DNA of 64,000 nt, from positions 32,001 through 96,000 of IMG/VR virus record IMGVR_UViG_3300033073_001153. One strand, written 5' to 3'. Source of the stretch: a virus. Taxonomy: Duplodnaviria > Caudoviricetes. The notes under the pieces were generated by a model, which was given only the letters and a program-made list of their open reading frames with translations, was not told the DNA's origin and did no database searches. Below, one piece after another: positions 19,243-63,996 of the stretch. A program made the position numbers and the translations under genes. Each line of letters opens with the position of its first letter. Within the stretch, counting starts at the first letter, position 1.

Positions 19243-22200
19243 ATGGCAGAAATTAATGGATCTACATCCTTTAGACAAGAATTGATGAATTATATTTCAT
19301 CTAAACTTCCGTATTCAGGAATTGATACCACTCAAATGGTTCAAAATTTAAATCCAAAGTATCGTTACTTCGAAGATACTGGAATGAAACGAGCAGAAGT
19401 TCTGTCACGTCATTCGGTTTCGCAAAATTTTGATTTTAATAACGAAACAGTAGGAACTGTATCATCAGATAAAAGATACAGTGAAGTGATGTATGCCAAC
19501 ATCCAAAAGGATAAATTGGCTCGTGTTAAAGATTATCGAATTATGGCAGCTTTCTCAGAAGTTGCAAACGCACTAGATGAAATTTGTGATGAAGTTATTA
19601 ATACAGATTCTCATACAAGTAGTTGTTTAAAATTAAAATACAGAAATATAAATCTTTCGGATTTCCAAAAAGAAACCATCGAAAAAGAGTTTTATAAATA
19701 TACAAATTACTTTGATTTTGAACACAAAGGCTGGAGTTATTTTCGTCAGTTATTAGTAGAAGGAGAGATTTATTGGGAACATATTATTCATAAAGATTAT
19801 GTAGAAGAAGGAGTTTTAGGTGTTGTTCAAGTTCCTACTGAATTAATTGATCCAGTATTTTCTAATGTTCAAAATGTAATGGTTAAAGGATATTTGTATC
19901 GTAAGCCTAAATTTGATCCGAATAATCCATTAAAACAAGTTGGTATTGATTATATCCCAATGGATAAGAATCAAATTACTTATGTACATTCAGATGTATG
20001 GAATGAAAGTAAAACGATGCGTCTTCCATTTTTGGAAAATGCTCGTAGAGCTTATCGTCAGTTGTCGATGATTGAAGATTCGATCATCATTTATCGCTTG
20101 GCTCGTGCTCCAGAACGTTTAGTGTTTAATGTTGACGTTGGTAATATGCCAGCACCAAAAGCAGAAGCATACCTTCGAAAATTAATTACAAATTATTGGT
20201 CTTCTAAAACATATGATCCAGATCAAGCTGGTATTGTACAAAAATTTAAGCCACAATCAATTCTAGATAACTTTTGGTTTGCAAAACGTGCAGGATCAGA
20301 AGGAACAAGTGTAACACAATTGGCTGGGGCATGTTTAGCTATGGATACTAAAGTTCCATTATTGGACGGGAGAACTTTAACTATAAGCGAAATTGAGCAA
20401 GAAATTAAAGAAAATAAGAAGATTTGGGTATACAGCACAAATCCAAAAACGGGTCACGTAGCTCCCGGTTTAGTTACTTGGGCTGGCGTTACTCAAGAAG
20501 AAGCTGAAGTGTATAAACTTACTTTTGATAATGGAAAAGAATTAATTTGTACTCCTGATCACAAATTCCCAATTTTAGGAAAAGGATTTGTAGAAGCAAA
20601 AGATCTAGAAATAGGCGAGAGTATGATACCTTTTTACACTAAGAACGAAAAAATTAGTAAAAAAGCGAATGAATATGAAATGGTATATCAAAATGATACC
20701 AAAACTTGGGAATATACCCACAGAATGGTAGCTAATTTCTTCAAAAATGTTAATGAACATGAGGAAATGACATATTCCGAAAAATATGAGAATCATAAAA
20801 AAACTGTGATTCATCATAAAGATTTCAATCGTTTTAATAATAATCCCGAAAATCTTGCCTATATGAACTTCAAAGATCATATGGCCTATCATATTGGGAA
20901 TGGAGAACATACTAAAATAGTATGGGCGAAGAGAACTGAAGAAGAACGAAGAATTATAGGAGAGAAGCAATCCAATGGAATTAAGGAATATTTCTCTTCA
21001 TTATCTGATCAAGAAAGAGAACACAGAGCAAATATTTCCAGAGAAAATGGAAAATTGGGTCCAATTGCTTTAGGAGAAAAGCTAAAAGATTCTGAATTTA
21101 GAAAAGAATATGGATCAAAGATAAGCAAATCTAATAAAAAAAGATTTGCGGATATGAATCAAGAAGAAAAAAATTCTTATTTTTATAATAGTTATGTAAA
21201 AAACTTACAAAGTGAAAAATATGTAAATAATTTAAAAAAGTTGACAGAAACACAATCTTTGATTTTTGATGATAAAATTTTAAAATTTGTTATTGATCAA
21301 GTTAGTGGAAAAACTACTCACGAAGTAACTAAAGAAGATTTGTGTGATATTATCAACAATAATCCAGAAATTCTTGGTCATTTCTTGAAGTTGAATGAAG
21401 GGAGACATATTAGAAATTGGTGCGGCACTAAGATTTCAGTTACCCATTTTTCACCAATGGTCAAGAGCTTCGGATACAAAACATGGAAACAATTCCGTAA
21501 AGAATGTGAACTATTCAACCATCGTTTAGTTAGTGTTGAAAAACTTCCAAATAAGATTCAAGTAGGTACATTGACGATTGATAACGAAGAAAAATATCAT
21601 GATTATCATACGTTTGCCCTTGATTGTGGGGTATTTACGAAAAATTCGAACCTTGGAGAGCTTAGTGATTTAATGTACTTCGTTAAGAAACTTTATCAAT
21701 CTTTGAAAGTTCCTACTACTCGTTTAGATCCACAAGATGCTTTTCGTGATGGAGCTGACATGCTTCGTGAAGAATTAAAATTTGCACGTTTTATTATTCG
21801 TTTACAAAATATTTTTGCGAGTGGATTAAAGAATGGATTTATTACACATTTACAATTAAAAGGAATGTGGAAAGAATATGAATTAAAAGAAGAGACAATT
21901 CATATTGAATTTAATGTTCCTACAAACTTTTACGAATTGAGAGAAAGTCAAAAGCTAGAACTTAAAGTACAAAACTTTGGTTCGTTAGCATCTAATGAAT
22001 CTATTTCTCCGTCTTTTGCACAAAAGAGATATCTAGGATGGACTGATATTGATATTAAAGCTAATCGTGAATTCTTACGAAAAGATAAAGAATTGCGTTG
22101 GGAGTTGACTCAGATTGAAAATATGGGTCCAAACTGGAAACAAGCCGTAGCTGCTCAAGCAGAAGCAGGAGGTGCCCCCGGTGGTGGAGGAGCACCTCCA

Positions 22201-22365
22201 AGTGGTGGTATGGGAGGAGGAATGGGAGGTGGAGGAGGAATGGGTGGAATGGGAGGAGCACCACCTACACCAGAAGGAGGAGAAGAAGGAGCACCCCCAC
22301 CAGAAGGTGGTACAGAATCTCCACCACCAGCAGAAGGAGCACCGAAAGCAGAACCAGCAGTATAA
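19243..22365 (+). CDS. Portal vertex protein (T4 gp20) with intein
   Basis: EDSIIIYRLARAPERLVFNVDVGNMP..KAE.YL, KLYQSLKVP..RL, REELKFARFI.RLQ; Gly/Pro-rich tail. Confidence 0.95.
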   Translation: MAEINGSTSFRQELMNYISSKLPYSGIDTTQMVQNLNPKYRYFEDTGMKRAEVLSRHSVSQNFDFNNETVGTVSSDKRYSEVMYANIQKDKLARVKDYRIMAAFSEVANALDEICDEVINTDSHTSSCLKLKYRNINLSDFQKETIEKEFYKYTNYFDFEHKGWSYFRQLLVEGEIYWEHIIHKDYVEEGVLGVVQVPTELIDPVFSNVQNVMVKGYLYRKPKFDPNNPLKQVGIDYIPMDKNQITYVHSDVWNESKTMRLPFLENARRAYRQLSMIEDSIIIYRLARAPERLVFNVDVGNMPAPKAEAYLRKLITNYWSSKTYDPDQAGIVQKFKPQSILDNFWFAKRAGSEGTSVTQLAGACLAMDTKVPLLDGRTLTISEIEQEIKENKKIWVYSTNPKTGHVAPGLVTWAGVTQEEAEVYKLTFDNGKELICTPDHKFPILGKGFVEAKDLEIGESMIPFYTKNEKISKKANEYEMVYQNDTKTWEYTHRMVANFFKNVNEHEEMTYSEKYENHKKTVIHHKDFNRFNNNPENLAYMNFKDHMAYHIGNGEHTKIVWAKRTEEERRIIGEKQSNGIKEYFSSLSDQEREHRANISRENGKLGPIALGEKLKDSEFRKEYGSKISKSNKKRFADMNQEEKNSYFYNSYVKNLQSEKYVNNLKKLTETQSLIFDDKILKFVIDQVSGKTTHEVTKEDLCDIINNNPEILGHFLKLNEGRHIRNWCGTKISVTHFSPMVKSFGYKTWKQFRKECELFNHRLVSVEKLPNKIQVGTLTIDNEEKYHDYHTFALDCGVFTKNSNLGELSDLMYFVKKLYQSLKVPTTRLDPQDAFRDGADMLREELKFARFIIRLQNIFASGLKNGFITHLQLKGMWKEYELKEETIHIEFNVPTNFYELRESQKLELKVQNFGSLASNESISPSFAQKRYLGWTDIDIKANREFLRKDKELRWELTQIENMGPNWKQAVAAQAEAGGAPGGGGAPPSGGMGGGMGGGGGMGGMGGAPPTPEGGEEGAPPPEGGTESPPPAEGAPKAEPAV
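20332..21645 (+). mobile_element. Intein (438 aa) with HNH homing endonuclease in the portal gene
   Basis: N-terminal CLAMDTKV, block B CTPDHKF, HNH THRMVA...IHHKDFNRFNNNPENL, C-terminal VFTKN|S. Confidence 0.92.
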
Positions 22366-38491: not shown

Positions 38492-38705
38492 AGCCGTATT
38501 TTATAACTGCGAGCATCCAAAGCTTCTCGTCAACGATTTCAAACTCAGCGTAATCGTCATGACCCATTTCATGGACATTTATAATTTTTAATCCTAATTC
38601 TTCATTGAAAGTTTTTTCCAATTCCATAGAATTGTTATTGAATCTTTGGATTAAAGCTGGTTCATATTGTTTATAAAATGAAAGTACTACTTTATTTTTT
38701 CCCAT
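38481..38705 (-). CDS. Hypothetical protein
   Basis: Short ORF overlapping the thyX end. Confidence 0.55.
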   Translation of the reverse strand: MGKNKVVLSFYKQYEPALIQRFNNNSMELEKTFNEELGLKIINVHEMGHDDYAEFEIVDEKLWMLAVIKYGFTQ

Positions 38706-40789
38706 GCTTCTTCGCTCCAGTTTTGTTTAGATAGAATATTTCGATAAGAACGCCATCCGTCGAAATTATCATGGATTCCAAAATCACAAACAGCAGAATG
38801 TTCGAATGGACTCCAGTGTCCTTCTTTTACTAACATATCATGTAAATTATAATCTTTATCATAATTTACAACTCCATCAAAATTTTTATAAGAAACTCTA
38901 GCTGCTCTTGCTGTAGCGATTTTTAACTTTTGTCGAGTATTTAAACCATCGAGATATTTATCTCCAAAAGGGATATGCCATTCTCCAATTGTTTTTTCTA
39001 CTGGTTTGTTAGATTGATACAATTCTAACATCTTATATGCCAATTCTCTAATTTCTGGTTGAGCTGCTTTATGTGCTCTAAGTTTAAAGAAGTTTTGAAA
39101 TTCTGTAGCAGTTAATAATGTAGTAATATGGAAAAATGGTTCCATAATACGATTAACTACTTGTTTATGTAAACCAAGTTCATTTAATTGTTTTGCATGT
39201 GCAACTGCCGCATCTCTAGCGGAGTTCCAGATCAGCATAGCTTTCATTTTAGTTTCTTCATCTACTTCGTTATCAGCTTGCATTCCTTTTTGATTAGATC
39301 CCCAATGAACAGGAAGTGCCGGATCTGTTAATACATCTTCGATGAATTTAGTTACTGGTATAGCTCTACTATTATGTACTACAACCCCATTCGCAACGAA
39401 ATTATGATAAGGAGCAGCAACTTCTATATCATACGTAGGTTCTTTGCCTACAAATTTAATTGTCTTTATTTTAAAGAATCTAGCTACAAGACTGTTTACT
39501 TTTCCTCTTGGTTTGTTTATATCACTGCATTTTAATTTTAAATTCGAATGTTCTTCTACGAATTTTTCTAAAGGTTTTCCCGCATTATACCAATCTAAAA
39601 ATAATAAATCTAAATTATTAGAATGAATAAATTTATGAATTTCTTTATTAAGAGGTACGATATTATCAATATCGTATTGTTTTTCTTTATTATGCCAACG
39701 TGGATTTATATGATGTAATTCTAAGTTTTGTCCATATCCACTTATTACGCATTTATAATTAAATTTTTCCATAATATTCGAACGAATTTGATTCATCCAT
39801 CTAGTCATTCTGCTATTACCTTCTTTATATTTCAAATGAGAATTTGGTTTAATTCTTCTTTTAGCTGCTTCTCTTACTTTTACTAAAGATGAATCAGGTA
39901 ATGTGTATCGTTTTCCTTTGTTCCAAGTAACAATATTAGCCCATGACCATTTATTACCTTTTAATCCAAATTTAGCGGCAGCTCCTTTTATTCTATCTGT
40001 TGTAGAATTACATAATTCTGCAATCTGCGTAAAGAAAAGCCCTTCTTTTATTTTAGATTCAAGCCAATCTTTATTTTTATAAATAAGATTTTCGTTCTCG
40101 ATCTGAAGTTTTTTGAAGAAAATTCTATTTTTTTCGCAAAAATAGCACAAGCTTTTGTACGATATGTTGTGTTCTTCTGCTATCTGTTTGAGAGTTTTTT
40201 TATGATTATCTCTTTGATCAATAAGATAATCCACATCTAAATTCATACCATTAGTACAAATTTTAAAATTATGATCATCAAAAATTGTGAGACCGTTATT
40301 ATGAGTTACATTAATATCATTTAATGTTTTCCATCCTTCATTAGTAAAAATTCTATGTTCTTTTGTACATTTTAATTTATATCCATTCTCTAATTCTATT
40401 TCGTAGATATCTTTTTCACCACTAAACATACAATCTACTAATTTTGTAGAAATGAATTCTCCGGTGTCTTCATTTAAGCATCTGAGATTCATTTCTTTTA
40501 ATCTATGACGCATAGAACGACCCCATGAGTCTCCGTCTGTCCATTTCTTATAAAGATCTTTTATTTTGATCTTCATGTGCAATGACCTCTTTTTATTTTT
40601 GATCATGCTTGGTTTTTCGATGAAAATTTCAGAATCGCCAGCTAAACAACTAGCTGCATTCCTAGAAAGTGATCTATGTGTAAGTAGTTCAGAATGAATA
40701 AATCTCGGATATGTCAAGACATACGAAGTAATACGCTTTGAAGTATTTTCAGAACAAACCGAATCGGCAATGATTTTAGCTGTGATCAT
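38687..40789 (-). CDS. thyX: Flavin-dependent thymidylate synthase with intein
   Basis: PRFIHSELLTHR.LSRNAAS|SRAIP, LHKQ..NR..EPF, FFKLR....AQPEI, HWSPFEH. Confidence 0.92.
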   Translation of the reverse strand: MITAKIIADSVCSENTSKRITSYVLTYPRFIHSELLTHRSLSRNAASCLAGDSEIFIEKPSMIKNKKRSLHMKIKIKDLYKKWTDGDSWGRSMRHRLKEMNLRCLNEDTGEFISTKLVDCMFSGEKDIYEIELENGYKLKCTKEHRIFTNEGWKTLNDINVTHNNGLTIFDDHNFKICTNGMNLDVDYLIDQRDNHKKTLKQIAEEHNISYKSLCYFCEKNRIFFKKLQIENENLIYKNKDWLESKIKEGLFFTQIAELCNSTTDRIKGAAAKFGLKGNKWSWANIVTWNKGKRYTLPDSSLVKVREAAKRRIKPNSHLKYKEGNSRMTRWMNQIRSNIMEKFNYKCVISGYGQNLELHHINPRWHNKEKQYDIDNIVPLNKEIHKFIHSNNLDLLFLDWYNAGKPLEKFVEEHSNLKLKCSDINKPRGKVNSLVARFFKIKTIKFVGKEPTYDIEVAAPYHNFVANGVVVHNSRAIPVTKFIEDVLTDPALPVHWGSNQKGMQADNEVDEETKMKAMLIWNSARDAAVAHAKQLNELGLHKQVVNRIMEPFFHITTLLTATEFQNFFKLRAHKAAQPEIRELAYKMLELYQSNKPVEKTIGEWHIPFGDKYLDGLNTRQKLKIATARAARVSYKNFDGVVNYDKDYNLHDMLVKEGHWSPFEHSAVCDFGIHDNFDGWRSYRNILSKQNWSEEAWEKIK
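39371..40648 (-). mobile_element. Intein (426 aa) with HNH endonuclease in thyX
   Basis: CLAGDS start, CTKEHRIFT block B, LELHHINP HNH, YDIEV..PYHNFVANGVVVHN|S end. Confidence 0.93.
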
Positions 40790-58240: not shown

Positions 58241-58472
58241 AAGGTTGTGTTGGGTAAGTGTGAATCTATTATCGGCGCGAGTTTATATTCTGACTGGAAT
58301 GTTTCCCGTAAGCATGATTGCCTAATGGCGGGACGCTAAGGGGGTTTGTGATGCCCTATGTGGGTAGGGGTGCGGTGGTGATATTGCCGGAGGGGTCGGA
58401 GCCTTTTAAGGGGCCTTTACGCGCAAAGGCGGGGAGGGGGATCGAACTCCCTCCCCGCACTACTTTCCGGTT

Positions 58473-60041
58473 TTACTTGCTTTGACCTTTCAAATACGCC
58501 GCAACGTCCTGCACCTCAACCAAATCCCGCTTGGCGCGGGTTATGGCGACGTAGATCAGATTGTTTTCCTGCACTTTCATCCATTCCTTTTTAGCCCACT
58601 TGCTAGGCATAAAGTCCTCACGTCCAAGCAGGAAGACTCTCTCCCACTCTAAGCCTTTGGACTTGTGAACAGAGCAGAGTGTCAGGAGGTCTTTACGGGT
58701 CGTTTTGTCGTCGGCATTGCTGAACATGCTGTCGATAAGGGACTTGAGGTCATCCACCCTATTCTTTCCCTCAACGTAGCACTTTTCCATGCATGCCCTA
58801 ATGCAATCGACTTTATCCTGAATTACCCCAACAAGTGCGTCGTTCCCTTTGGTTTGTGCTTTCTGAGTCTCACGGTCAAGATAGTCGCTCAGTCGGTTCT
58901 CCAACGCATCCAAGGTTTTAACCTTCCATTTGCCTATCACGTTTAGCAAACCCTGAGCAATGTCCCGTCCCTCAATCCGGCAAGGGATGCCCCTCTTGAT
59001 GAGGGAGAAAGCCGTCCGCATTAGGGGAGCATTAGTCCGACAAAGGATTGCGTCCCGATAGGAAAGATTCAGGGACTCAGGCTTTTCCGCCAAGTCACTG
59101 TAGGGAAGTTGAGTAACGCTTCCGGTCTCGGCATTCGGCGCAGCCTCAATAGTGGGATACCACGTTTGAGCGTGTTTAATCACGCTGGAACTGCACCTAT
59201 AACAAACGGAGAGAGGGAGTTCCACGGCGTTGTGAGCGGCAATGAGATTATCCAAAGCCATTGCATCCGCCCCCGTGAAACCGTAAACGGCTTGCCCCCT
59301 ATCACCCACTTTTAAATGGCGGGTATATTCGTGAGCCAGTGCCTTGCAAACCGCTTGTCTGAGAGGACTTAGGTCTTGGCATTCATCCACAATTACCCAG
59401 TCAAATTTCGGCAACTTATAGTTACGCAAAACTGTCAGGTAAACCATGTCAGAAAAGTCGATTGTCTGACTGTCCTCATTGTTCACTTTCAACGCTTTCT
59501 GAGCAATCTCAATGCACCTATCCATTGAGGCTTCCTCTTCCAACTCAACCTCATGGTGATCCATAAGTCTCTGCCATTGTGAGGACTCGGCAATGGGCCA
59601 GAAAATTCCAGCACCGTCATCTTTGGCTAGTGAAACCAGCTTACTTACTGCACCGGAGTACATTGCGAAGTCCTCTTCTGAGAGGTTATTCTCCAAAATC
59701 ATGCGAACCTTGCGGTTCTCTAACACAATCCGTTTGCCTTTGTTTGCGTTCCGATACGCCCCAAAACAAAGGGCGTGTACGGTGCTACACTCAACGGTGG
59801 TGAGTCCCTCCCGTTTCAGTTTGGAATCCATTTCCAACTGTATTTTCTTATTGAATGCCAACACGATAGCGTTCAACACAACGGACTTACCCTCTTTCGC
59901 AAGGTACTCGACCAGTGCTTTTAAGGTTTGGATAATAACGGTGCTCTTACCGCTACCCGCAACGGCGGACACAACGGCGTTGCCCTTTCCAGTGATTGCC
60001 CAGCTGAACACGGCGGACTGATATTTTGATGGAACGAACAT
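58473..60041 (-). CDS. UvrD/Rep-like SF1 helicase
   Basis: AVAGSGKST, LAFN, VDECQD, VGDRGQAVYGF.GA, YRC, HKSKGLEW, YVAITRA. Confidence 0.93.
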   Translation of the reverse strand: MFVPSKYQSAVFSWAITGKGNAVVSAVAGSGKSTVIIQTLKALVEYLAKEGKSVVLNAIVLAFNKKIQLEMDSKLKREGLTTVECSTVHALCFGAYRNANKGKRIVLENRKVRMILENNLSEEDFAMYSGAVSKLVSLAKDDGAGIFWPIAESSQWQRLMDHHEVELEEEASMDRCIEIAQKALKVNNEDSQTIDFSDMVYLTVLRNYKLPKFDWVIVDECQDLSPLRQAVCKALAHEYTRHLKVGDRGQAVYGFTGADAMALDNLIAAHNAVELPLSVCYRCSSSVIKHAQTWYPTIEAAPNAETGSVTQLPYSDLAEKPESLNLSYRDAILCRTNAPLMRTAFSLIKRGIPCRIEGRDIAQGLLNVIGKWKVKTLDALENRLSDYLDRETQKAQTKGNDALVGVIQDKVDCIRACMEKCYVEGKNRVDDLKSLIDSMFSNADDKTTRKDLLTLCSVHKSKGLEWERVFLLGREDFMPSKWAKKEWMKVQENNLIYVAITRAKRDLVEVQDVAAYLKGQSK

Positions 60042-60131
60042 ATGTTTTTTTTTCTGTTAATGTACTGAACTTCAACCCTTTACGAACTCAGTTCCCTACC
60101 TCGGGACTGCATAAAAGGCTGAAAGCAAAAC

Positions 60132-60170
60132 ACTAAAAACCACGCCCCCTACACCGTATTGTGTAGGGGG
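60132..60170 (-). repeat. Repeated hairpin/terminator, copy 1
   Basis: 39-nt near-exact repeat of 60500-60538; CCCCCTACAC stem. Confidence 0.75.
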
Positions 60171-60182
60171 AGTTTATGTGAT

Positions 60183-60434
60183 TTATTCAAGTGGGGAAGG
60201 ATAACCCGCTTCAACCATAAGCGGATTCCATTTATTGTACACCCTTGCTTCTAAGGGCGTACAATTGACCGTAATATCAGTATTCATCCCACTCGCTTGT
60301 TGGCGAGTGGTAATTTGTATCTCCCCCTCTGCGCGTTCCTGAGGGGTACAATCTCCCCAAACTGCCGGAATCCACATTTTGATTTTATTTTGGAATGCGT
60401 ATTCAACAGCATTTAGATTTAGATGATTCGACAT
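60183..60434 (-). CDS. Hypothetical early protein
   Basis: ORF flanked by conserved leader and hairpin. Confidence 0.6.
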   Translation of the reverse strand: MSNHLNLNAVEYAFQNKIKMWIPAVWGDCTPQERAEGEIQITTRQQASGMNTDITVNCTPLEARVYNKWNPLMVEAGYPSPLE

Positions 60435-60499
60435 AATTTTTGTTTTCTTTTTAGAATCTGATTGCCAACGCTTTAACCATTAAAACGCTGGCGACAAAT

Positions 60500-60538
60500 A
60501 CTAAAAACCACGCCCCCTACACCGGATTGTGTAGGGGG
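60500..60538 (-). repeat. Repeated hairpin/terminator, copy 2
   Basis: See copy 1; related third copy at 61993-62024. Confidence 0.75.
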
Positions 60539-60550
60539 TTGAATTGGAGA

Positions 60551-60898
60551 TTAGCAGACCATCTCGTCTTGTCTCCGGACTTCTCTAAGTCCCCGTTCCA
60601 TGAGGTTCTCAGCGAGGAACTTCCGGAACTGAGCATCAGTGATTTCCTGAGTGTTCGTCCAGAGACCGATTCTGCGTTTAATGTCTGCCAGCGAGACCAT
60701 TCCGGAGTCCGGAGTCCCGCGCAAACGGTGAACTGCGAAGTACCTCTGAGCGTACTGTTTCCAGTTTTTTTCAGTGATTGAACGCAACTGAACATCAATG
60801 GAATTCCAGATAAGGTGCTCAGTCTTAGACCACTCTGCATTATCGGAGTGGAGTTCCTTCCAGTTTGCGACTTTGCCGAATTCGAAGTTGAGTGACAT
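60551..60898 (-). CDS. Hypothetical early protein
   Basis: MSLNF...ITEKN...RRIGLWTN; A-rich leader. Confidence 0.7.
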   Translation of the reverse strand: MSLNFEFGKVANWKELHSDNAEWSKTEHLIWNSIDVQLRSITEKNWKQYAQRYFAVHRLRGTPDSGMVSLADIKRRIGLWTNTQEITDAQFRKFLAENLMERGLREVRRQDEMVC

Positions 60899-60979
60899 AT
60901 CTTTTTTATTTTGTAGGATTTGGGTTTCAACGCTCCGGTCTCGGCATCCCTACTTCGGGGCCGCGAAACGCTGAGGACA

Positions 60980-61366
60980 AACCCTAGTGCTAGGAAACTT
61001 AACCTAGCGGATTGTCTTTAAGCTACTTACGAAAATGTAAGTGGAGACCGGAAACGCAAGTGCCGTTAGCACCGGAACCGTCCCGAGTTCTTGACCATAC
61101 AAGGCAATCCCTTCCGCAATGGATACTTTGATCCGAATTGGAAAGGCAACGCTGACTAACTCCTTAAAAGTCAGCATTCTATGGCACATATCATTCCTCT
61201 GTTAAAGGTGTAGGCAAATGTGCAGCCCCCAGTTTTCCGTTACGGTCGTCTGGTGACCGGAGCCGCTAGCCCTGACTCAGGGGTCCGGTTGCCACCGGAA
61301 AACGCTTGTCGCACGTCCTACGCTGGGGAGACCTCCCAGAACCCAGACCAGCGGAACTCGCTGGCC
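60980..61366 (-). ncRNA. Candidate large structured RNA/leader
   Basis: Many short hairpins, no convincing ORF, sigma28-like promoter at 61374-61400. Confidence 0.5.
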
Positions 61367-61373
61367 TACCCTG

Positions 61374-61400
61374 TATTCGGCATCCTACAGAATCCCTTAA
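61374..61400 (-). promoter_or_regulatory. Sigma28-like promoter
   Basis: TTAA-N15-GCCGAATA. Confidence 0.55.
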
Positions 61401-61885: not shown

Positions 61886-62041
61886 GGGTTTTTATTTATA
61901 TTCTATAAGTTATGCTTATAGAGCATAATGAATATAAGGTATGCTTATAGAGTATAATGAATGTTCTGTATGTTCCATGTGGAACAAAAGAGAACCCCCT
62001 ACACTCCGTAGAATGTAGGGGGTTGGGGGAACCGGACTCTG

Positions 62042-62373: not shown

Positions 62374-62402
62374 TTATCGGCAGAGTGTAGGGAATACTTT
62401 AG
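62374..62402 (-). promoter_or_regulatory. Sigma28-like promoter
   Basis: CTAAAG...GCCGATAA (TAAA-N16-GCCGATAA). Confidence 0.65.
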
Positions 62403-63932: not shown

Positions 63933-63996
63933 GTGAACCGGAAGGGATCGAACCTTCCGGTATTATACTAATCGGTCAGGAATACTTTTTCTTTAG
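63933..63996 (-). promoter_or_regulatory. Sigma28-like promoter plus T-loop hairpin cassette 3
   Basis: CTAAAG..ACCGATTA (N15 spacer)-N7-identical hairpin. Confidence 0.7.

Follow-up and report, generated by a model that had tools for sequence, protein, structure and literature searches.

Three consecutive minus-strand genes of an uncultured jumbo phage are each preceded by a hairpin element, here called E1, E2 and E3. The genes lie in a 64,000-nucleotide (nt) stretch of DNA, which we call the window. It comprises bases 32001-96000 of the 242,607-bp virus record IMGVR_UViG_3300033073_001153, which is rated complete (own genome, G000). The unit runs, from 5' to 3', through a structured leader of about 400 nt, E1, the gene of a 115-aa protein, a short GC hairpin (hp1), E2, an 83-aa open reading frame (ORF), a second hp1, E3 and a gene for a UvrD/PcrA-like superfamily 1 (SF1) helicase (Table 1). 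As far as their sequences tell, E1, E2 and E3 represent one and the same cis-acting RNA structure, present in three copies and acting on the sense transcript.

Table 1. Features of the E-bearing operon, in window positions and in 5' to 3' order of the minus strand
Feature	Position	Strand	Description
Short hairpin	60988-61009	-	GCTAGG-TTAAGTTT-CCTAGC; directly upstream of E1; positional counterpart of hp1
E1, long form	60911-60989	-	Leader of 115-aa gene; P0 + P1 + AGAC bulge + P2 (CGGC/GCCG) + P3 (CCC/GGG) + GAAGUA hexaloop; covariance model R1 match 73.8 bits, E 1e-15
E1 core hairpin	60927-60974	-	
A-rich leader after E1	60899-60913	-	15 nt, unpaired, no Shine-Dalgarno sequence
115-aa ORFan gene	60551-60898	-	Downstream of E1; 14 homologues, all within the clade
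hp1, copy 1	60503-60538	-	10-bp GC hairpin CCCCCTACAC-AATCCG-GTGTAGGGGG + CGTGGTTTTT; directly upstream of E2
E2, short form	60449-60506	-	Leader of 83-aa ORF; P0 + 13-bp P1, loop AUG, no apical module; covariance model match 44.7 bits
E2 core hairpin	60464-60492	-	
A-rich leader after E2	60435-60449	-	15 nt, unpaired, no Shine-Dalgarno sequence
83-aa ORF	60183-60434	-	Downstream of E2; variable slot
hp1, copy 2	60135-60170	-	As copy 1 with loop AATACG, + CGTGGTTTTT; directly upstream of E3
E3, long form	60055-60136	-	Leader of helicase gene; P0 + 14-bp P1 + AGUU bulge + P2 (CAGU/ACUG) + P3 + GAGGUA hexaloop; covariance model match 63.1 bits
E3 core hairpin	60071-60123	-	
A-rich leader after E3	60042-60056	-	15 nt, unpaired, no Shine-Dalgarno sequence
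UvrD/PcrA-like SF1 helicase gene	58473-60041	-	Pfam UvrD-helicase, UvrD_C; phrog_1967 at 2.6e-100

Architecture of the elements

From the outside to the apex, the full architecture consists of a helix P0 of 7-12 bp, a 2x3 internal loop, a helix P1 of 11-14 bp, a bulge of 4-5 nt on the 3' strand, a helix P2 of 2-5 bp, a small bulge, a helix P3 and a hexaloop. The 3'-strand bulge reads AGUU, AGAC, AGAA or AACCU, and P3 is CCC/GGG or UCC/GGA. The hexaloop follows the consensus G-N-N-R-Y-A and is closed by a C-G pair in all long forms. The elements are 58-98 nt in length, with 22-32 predicted base pairs in the long forms (38 in the E3 of locus L017, which has an insertion in P1) and 17-23 in the short forms, P0 included. 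In the window copies, the last paired base is placed 16 nt ahead of the A of the ATG, and across relatives this distance is 3-26 nt, so the helix abuts or enters the ribosome footprint.

Folding is strongly biased to the sense strand. The minimum free energy (MFE) is -34.8 kcal/mol for E1 (27 bp, including 4 G-U pairs), -22.8 for E2 and -32.5 for E3 (32 bp, including 6 G-U pairs), against -24.4, -13.8 and -12.8 for the respective reverse complements. The core hairpins of E1, E2 and E3, taken by themselves as sense RNA, have energies of -32.8, -18.3 and -26.5 kcal/mol. Their z-scores relative to dinucleotide shuffles are -3.8, -5.1 and -4.5, compared to -0.4, -3.0 and -1.1 for the opposite strand.

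The three cores had been noticed in a sequence-only reading of the window and lie exactly where that reading placed them. The shared architecture that it described (an outer stem, a 4-nt 3' bulge starting with AG, a 4-bp stem, CCC/GGG and a hexaloop) holds and recurs in homologues, and the A-rich leader reported after each copy is found as the unpaired nucleotides before each ATG. The extents needed revision: the cores are as quoted, but the real elements are larger and include P0. The word TAG..TTTG, reported ahead of each copy, is indeed present, but does not form a signal of its own: together with the 3' flank (CAGUACAUUA, CAAAUCCUA or CAGAUUCUAAAA), to which it is base-paired, it makes up P0, five of whose eight pairs show compensatory double changes. 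The same word was also considered as a Bacteroidota-type promoter (TAnnTTTG) and rejected, the spacing being off by one, the TA not being conserved and the word covarying with the 3' flank.

Covariation and distribution

The covariance model has exactly three matches in the 242.6-kb genome and two in a 236-kb relative (G001). In the model searches, which covered these two genomes and the fetched loci, model R1 gave 23 matches (22 distinct), 3 in the own genome and 20 in related uncultured T4-like jumbo phages. Each of the 23 lies ahead of either the 115-aa gene or the helicase gene, or of an ORF inserted between the two. Orthologous copies of E3 are present upstream of the helicase in L017, L018, L020, L022, L023, L027, L029, L212 and L216.

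Covariation was followed in two alignments. The first (A2) was made with MAFFT only, from 15 copies, and was given an RNAalifold consensus; compensatory double changes are seen in 13 of its 20 pairs, and 94.9% of its cells pair, versus 20-56% when the pairing partners are slid by 1-3 columns. The second (A4) is model-fitted and holds the 23 matches; here 19 of 26 pairs have double changes and 90.8% of cells pair, versus 26-52% in the slid controls. None of 500 shuffles reached the observed covariation. A chance origin of the elements is excluded by this result, by the restriction to three matches genome-wide and by the 20 matches at the same operon positions in relatives.

G-U pairs account for 81 of the 583 predicted pairs (14%), some of them at fixed positions, and the mean MFE is -30.0 kcal/mol for the sense strand versus -20.6 kcal/mol for the reverse complement. 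The nucleotide identity of E3 to its relatives is 57-83%, while that of third-codon positions in the helicase gene is 37-51%. The share of G-U pairs, the strand bias in folding and the identity of E3 above that of third-codon positions show that the selected object is the RNA and not the DNA. Purifying selection on the elements is evident. Thus the compensatory changes that the sequence-only reading had pointed out between copies extend to homologues, its G-U pairs that work on the minus strand only are borne out, and the covariance-model analysis that it had called for finds strong covariation. The motif was not recognised in that reading, and Rfam likewise offers no match in the whole window at gathering thresholds and nothing that overlaps the elements in a permissive search to E=5.

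The distribution of the elements is narrow. At 160 more distant loci from metagenomes and IMG/VR, chosen by helicase guidance (helicase at most 47% identical), no element was found with model R1 or R2, including runs with the filters off on a subset. The absence from these loci indicates that the family is confined to a close clade. A metagenome locus with a helicase 58% identical (L032) does carry the element, with the same sequence as in L027. IMG/VR was also scanned with DNA patterns. The apex pattern CCCGARGTAGGGA..GAG returned 14 loci, all by chance, one group being inside a coding region. The P1-stem pattern returned 17 loci, of which only L201 is real (the same record as L018/G001), and the hp1 pattern returned L201 and one chance match in coding DNA of 60% GC. 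A blastn search of the region against 50,697 phage records gave no match. On present data, the E elements constitute a new RNA family restricted to one clade of uncultured jumbo phages (220-255 kb).

Operon, cassettes and genome

The shorter version that the sequence-only reading had reported at E2 is a real related copy. An E2-like short form is also found twice in L212, with compensatory changes, and from this pattern the short copy can be taken as a genuine conserved subtype and not as a degenerate remnant. Since short forms retain P0 and P1 yet have no apex, the long helix appears to be the common core of the family. Two relatives show other arrangements. In L025 (4896-4990, +), the GAGACA loop sits on a small hairpin of its own, which comes after a helix of the short form. 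In L213 (2860-3000, +), a sigma28-like promoter word belonging to the helicase gene itself is accompanied by a small hairpin and by a long hairpin that has diverged but retains a GAGACA hexaloop and a 3' bulge. In L216, the public helicase start (1554) is a TTG within the E3 hairpin, the real ATG being downstream of the element. As the called start lies inside E3, the deposited L216 protein (P0003) is probably over-extended at its N terminus.

Between the 115-aa gene and the helicase gene lies a variable slot. It is occupied by the 83-aa ORF in the window phage, by ORFs of 104, 94 and 77 aa in L017, L022 and L029, respectively, and by two small ORFs in L212, and it is empty in L020 and L216. 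An all-against-all BLASTP of the inserted ORFs detected no mutual similarity. The stem of E2 (GCCAGCGUUUUA...UAAAGCGUUGGC-AAUCAGA) matches its counterpart in the E1-type element of L017, L018 and L216. The gene behind that element in L018 has no relation to the 115-aa family, and the L212 homologue of this gene is preceded by a short form. With stems shared across slots in this way, the elements travel with exchangeable ORF cassettes and form their boundaries. As the comparison of loci shows, the cassette unit consists of the short hairpin, the E element, the A-rich leader and the ORF, and unrelated ORFs have been inserted, lost or swapped between relatives.

The short hairpins are less uniform than the elements that they precede. 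In the window hp1 scores as terminator-like; in relatives its sequence is kept and the T tract is poor or apart from the stem. The hairpin preceding E1 differs between phages. An hp1-like hairpin (CCCCCTACA-TTCTACGGA-GTGTAGGGGG) with an immediate T-rich tail also follows a 98-aa gene (~62000-62040, -), which suggests that the hp1 type is the general terminator hairpin of the region. As a remnant of a sigma28-like promoter hp1 was rejected, owing to a poor core word and wrong spacing.

Sigma28-like promoter words are present at 63971, 63730, 63338 and 62376-62401, and again at 58395-58419, just past the helicase gene. With the strict sigma28-like pattern, no word was found between 62376 and 58419, and in a sigma-70 scan promoter-like sites were no more frequent than in shuffled sequence. 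The three E-bearing genes form the one stretch of their G+C-rich island without promoter words and, for this reason, are probably read as one transcript starting upstream of the ~400-nt leader. We infer that this operon is early. The leader (60990-61380, -) is conserved at the nucleotide level in L017. Between the window phage and L017, 2-nt indels break a 61-aa ORF within it (61004-61189). With the ORF broken while the nucleotides are conserved, the stretch looks like a structured non-coding leader or RNA. It would be released if E1 is a cut site. The downstream side of the operon is bounded by a GC hairpin after the helicase gene (58429-58458, -), whose T-loop-like loop is AGTTCGATCC and whose tip is shared with hairpins at neighbouring gene starts, and, next to it, by the promoter-like word TAAAG-N-CCGAC (58395-58419, -).

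The product of the 115-aa gene has no credible Pfam or PHROG match, and its AlphaFold2 (AF2) model (pLDDT 68.6, with the N-terminal third of low confidence) has no fold match.

The island in which the three elements sit extends from ~57650 to ~65500 in window coordinates, past the end of the window (89650-97500 of the contig), and has minus-strand genes and 42-52% G+C in a genome of about 30% G+C. Small minus-strand ORFs are numerous in it, and each has a regulatory cassette of its own. The same region in relatives carries DUF932, SprT-like, ART-PolyVal, PcfJ and GP88 genes, a content that suggests an early anti-defence region. A chimeric assembly as the source of the island is ruled out: several independent contigs of 220-255 kb carry both the helicase and the elements. 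Homologues of the UvrD-like helicase, 92-49% identical, are found on independent contigs of 219-255 kb in the same neighbourhood, and over the contigs of 220-255 kb as a whole the identities go down from 92% to 40%.

The genome encodes a T4-type major capsid protein, a portal protein, ThyX and ribonucleotide reductase. The phage has no cultured close relative, as its capsid protein is only ~32% identical to cyanophage gp23. Inteins are present in the genes of the gp20-like portal (19243-22365, +), where the intein has an HNH endonuclease signature, and of ThyX (38687-40789, -). The Shine-Dalgarno (SD) signal is absent genome-wide: of 207 long ORFs, no more than 18 have a 4-mer core, and positions -10 to -8 are enriched in A. 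Initiation independent of SD is established for Bacteroidota, and the host of this SD-less phage is probably Bacteroidota-like. A sigma-70 family protein is encoded outside the window (G000:C1:152045-152245, -; region 2 match 7.7e-14), and in L025 a sigma gene lies within the early region (2447-2947). This protein may bear on the unusual sigma28-like promoter words.

Possible function of the elements

Phage T7 early RNA carries a series of RNase III signals (R0.3, R0.5, R1, R1.1 and R1.3), and similar sites are known in SP82 early RNA and the λ N leader. The E elements share with the T7 sites an irregular hairpin shape, about two or more helical turns long and interrupted by an internal loop or bulge, and they too recur before successive cistrons, in their case of what is probably one early polycistronic transcript. 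As in T7, the copies are related in architecture more than in sequence, and a cut would leave a protective hairpin at the 3' end of the upstream RNA. They differ from the T7 sites in several ways. Neither sequence nor Rfam links the two; the phage is T4-like and of jumbo size, and its host is SD-less and probably Bacteroidota-like; each element follows a short GC hairpin; the apical module has a conserved GNNRYA hexaloop, and a short form lacks this apex; and cleavage of the E elements is a prediction. Escherichia coli RNase III substrates such as T7 R1.1 span about two helical turns (at least about 20 bp), with coaxial stacking possible, and internal loops or bulges confine the enzyme to a single-strand cut that leaves a product with a protective 3' hairpin (PMC1540722). 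The E elements offer the corresponding anatomy: quasi-continuous pairing over about two or more turns, coaxial stacking included, and interruptions in the form of the 3' bulge and the 2x3 loop between P0 and P1.

Most likely, then, the hairpins are cut sites or stabilisers that let the message of each gene function alone. Our tentative preference, held at somewhat less than even confidence, is that the E elements are intercistronic double-stranded RNA (dsRNA) processing sites of the T7 RNase III kind, placed in plug-in cassettes that flank swapped ORFs. The unit would be read as one transcript, with the hp1 after each ORF serving as a leaky terminator-like hairpin. Host RNase III, or another dsRNA-specific endonuclease, would cut the P0-P1-P2-P3 helix and so separate the cistrons. 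The upstream RNA would then end at the protective short hairpin hp1, and the start region downstream would be released from P0, the helix abutting the ribosome footprint. That the cistrons are co-transcribed, that the helix is cut and by which enzyme, and that translation is affected are steps that we infer. A phage-encoded RNase III was not found in the genome, and the enzyme is present in a Bacteroides control genome. Host RNase III is, to our knowledge, near-universal.

Several observations weigh against processing of this kind. P1 of the short forms offers no more than 13-14 uninterrupted bp, a marginal length for RNase III if P0 does not stack on it. The apical CC-GNNRYA-GG hairpin persists even where it is detached from the long helix (L025) or stands in a diverged leader (L213), and its retention when detached points to a sequence-specific binder and not to a purely length-measuring nuclease. 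The G-U wobbles conserved at fixed positions could also mark a specific protein site. Finally, if termination at hp1 is efficient, E2 and E3 would require an unrecognised promoter, which would place both at 5' ends rather than between cistrons.

The simplest alternative is an uncleaved stabiliser or insulator, in which the intact hairpin would block ribonucleases from a 5'-proximal or intercistronic position, keep the A-rich, SD-less start single-stranded regardless of the upstream sequence and so make the ORF cassette portable. We regard this as somewhat unlikely. The elements end 3-26 nt ahead of the ATG, leaving exactly 15 nt unpaired in each of the three copies of the window, initiation in an SD-less genome should depend on an unstructured leader, and the short forms would suffice for such a role. 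However, any stable hairpin would do, yet conservation goes well beyond what stability needs in the position and sequence of the bulge (AGUU/AGAC/AGAA), in the internal loop, in the fixed G-U pairs and in the GNNRYA loop. Another alternative is a protein operator, with a phage or host RNA-binding protein on the apical CC-GNNRYA-GG, the bulge or both, controlling translation or processive antitermination. The models for such operators are λ nut with N, HK022 put and the RegA and gp43 operators of T4. The GNNRYA loop with its C-G closing pair, found in all long forms, survives as a small hairpin in L025 and in the diverged leader of L213, and E1 precedes the clade-restricted 115-aa ORFan, which could be its partner. 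Even so we consider an operator improbable: the forms without an apex (E2 of the window, the two in L212 and the main stem in L025) are nonetheless conserved with covariation, the E1-type element of L018 precedes an unrelated gene, and the 115-aa protein, having no arginine-rich N terminus, family match or fold match, was rejected as an identifiable RNA-binding partner. The sequence-only reading had offered RNase III-type processing or a protein-binding antitermination or translation element; the anatomy is consistent with the former, but antitermination is weakened. The E elements are like λ nut and HK022 put in being leader RNA structures of a phage operon, probably an early one, in having a small GC stem with a purine-rich loop, and in that E1 lies ahead of the gene of a small, probably early, protein. 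However, unlike in λ nut, the loop is a hexaloop and not a GNRA-like pentaloop, and the boxA-like word GCGUUUUA is paired within P1. Of the three copies, moreover, E2 and E3 stand after and not before the terminator-like hairpins that would have to be overridden, and no N-like arginine-rich protein was found.

A DNA-level role, either as a recombination substrate for cassette exchange (PeSL-like or attC-like) or as cover for an unrecognised promoter, seems very unlikely to us, although the exchange itself lends it some appeal. Unrelated ORFs lie between E copies in relatives, E stems are common to different slots, and the ends of P1 loosely resemble attC core words (TTCAGC...GTTGAA). In the PeSL cassettes of T4-type phages, a stem-loop (terminator) lies just upstream of a sigma-70-like early promoter, followed by a Shine-Dalgarno sequence and the start codon, and these cassettes mediate insertions and deletions (Arbiol et al., 2010, PMC2839356; Comeau et al., 2014, PMC4122927). 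Against a DNA-level role, the G-U pairs become A-C mismatches on the other strand, which disfavours a cruciform or a bottom-strand fold; the compensatory changes keep pairing rather than sequence, and homologous recombination does not need pairing; the genome has no tyrosine recombinase; and no sigma28-like word or convincing sigma-70-like promoter was found in or beside the elements. More specific candidates of this type were also rejected. An integron attC site is contradicted by the absence of a Phage_integrase domain from the genome and by folding on the sense (top) strand, since attC folds on the bottom strand with IntI. A miniature inverted-repeat transposable element (MITE) or cruciform is contradicted by the G-U asymmetry and by the confinement of the copies to one operon. 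For a DNA hairpin promoter of the N4 type, the fold is on the sense strand and far larger, and for a T4 MotA box at TGCTTTCA, the word is not conserved across copies.

The PeSL cassettes are nevertheless close to the E elements in organisation. Both are small repeated regulatory cassettes before small variable ORFs of T4-like phages, with a stem-loop followed by the expression signals of the next gene, and both are found at the borders of ORF insertion, deletion and replacement between relatives. The E cassettes are unlike PeSL in having a long covarying RNA hairpin in place of the promoter, and neither a promoter word nor a Shine-Dalgarno sequence. The E elements thus function most like T7-type RNase III sites and are organised most like PeSL cassettes, but are members of neither. 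A further reading, unlikely although not negligible, is that they represent a type of phage cis-regulatory RNA not described before, a plug-in cassette with two parts, namely a short GC hairpin and a long, bulged helix that carries a GNNRYA cap. Such a cassette would replace the promoter in SD-less hosts, and its apex would be bound by a dedicated phage or host protein rather than by RNase III alone.

Post-transcriptional control in SD-less hosts is poorly known. If the E elements are processing sites, the T7 strategy of cutting early polycistronic RNA extends to T4-like phages of such hosts, and the PeSL cassettes, which drive gene shuffling in T4-type phages, would have a promoter-free counterpart in the elements. 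If they are plug-in cassettes, a promoterless ORF spliced into the early operon would still yield its own processed, stable and translatable message. The motif is also a marker of the early operon of this clade, and a compact candidate part with which cistrons might be insulated or separated in Bacteroidota-like hosts.

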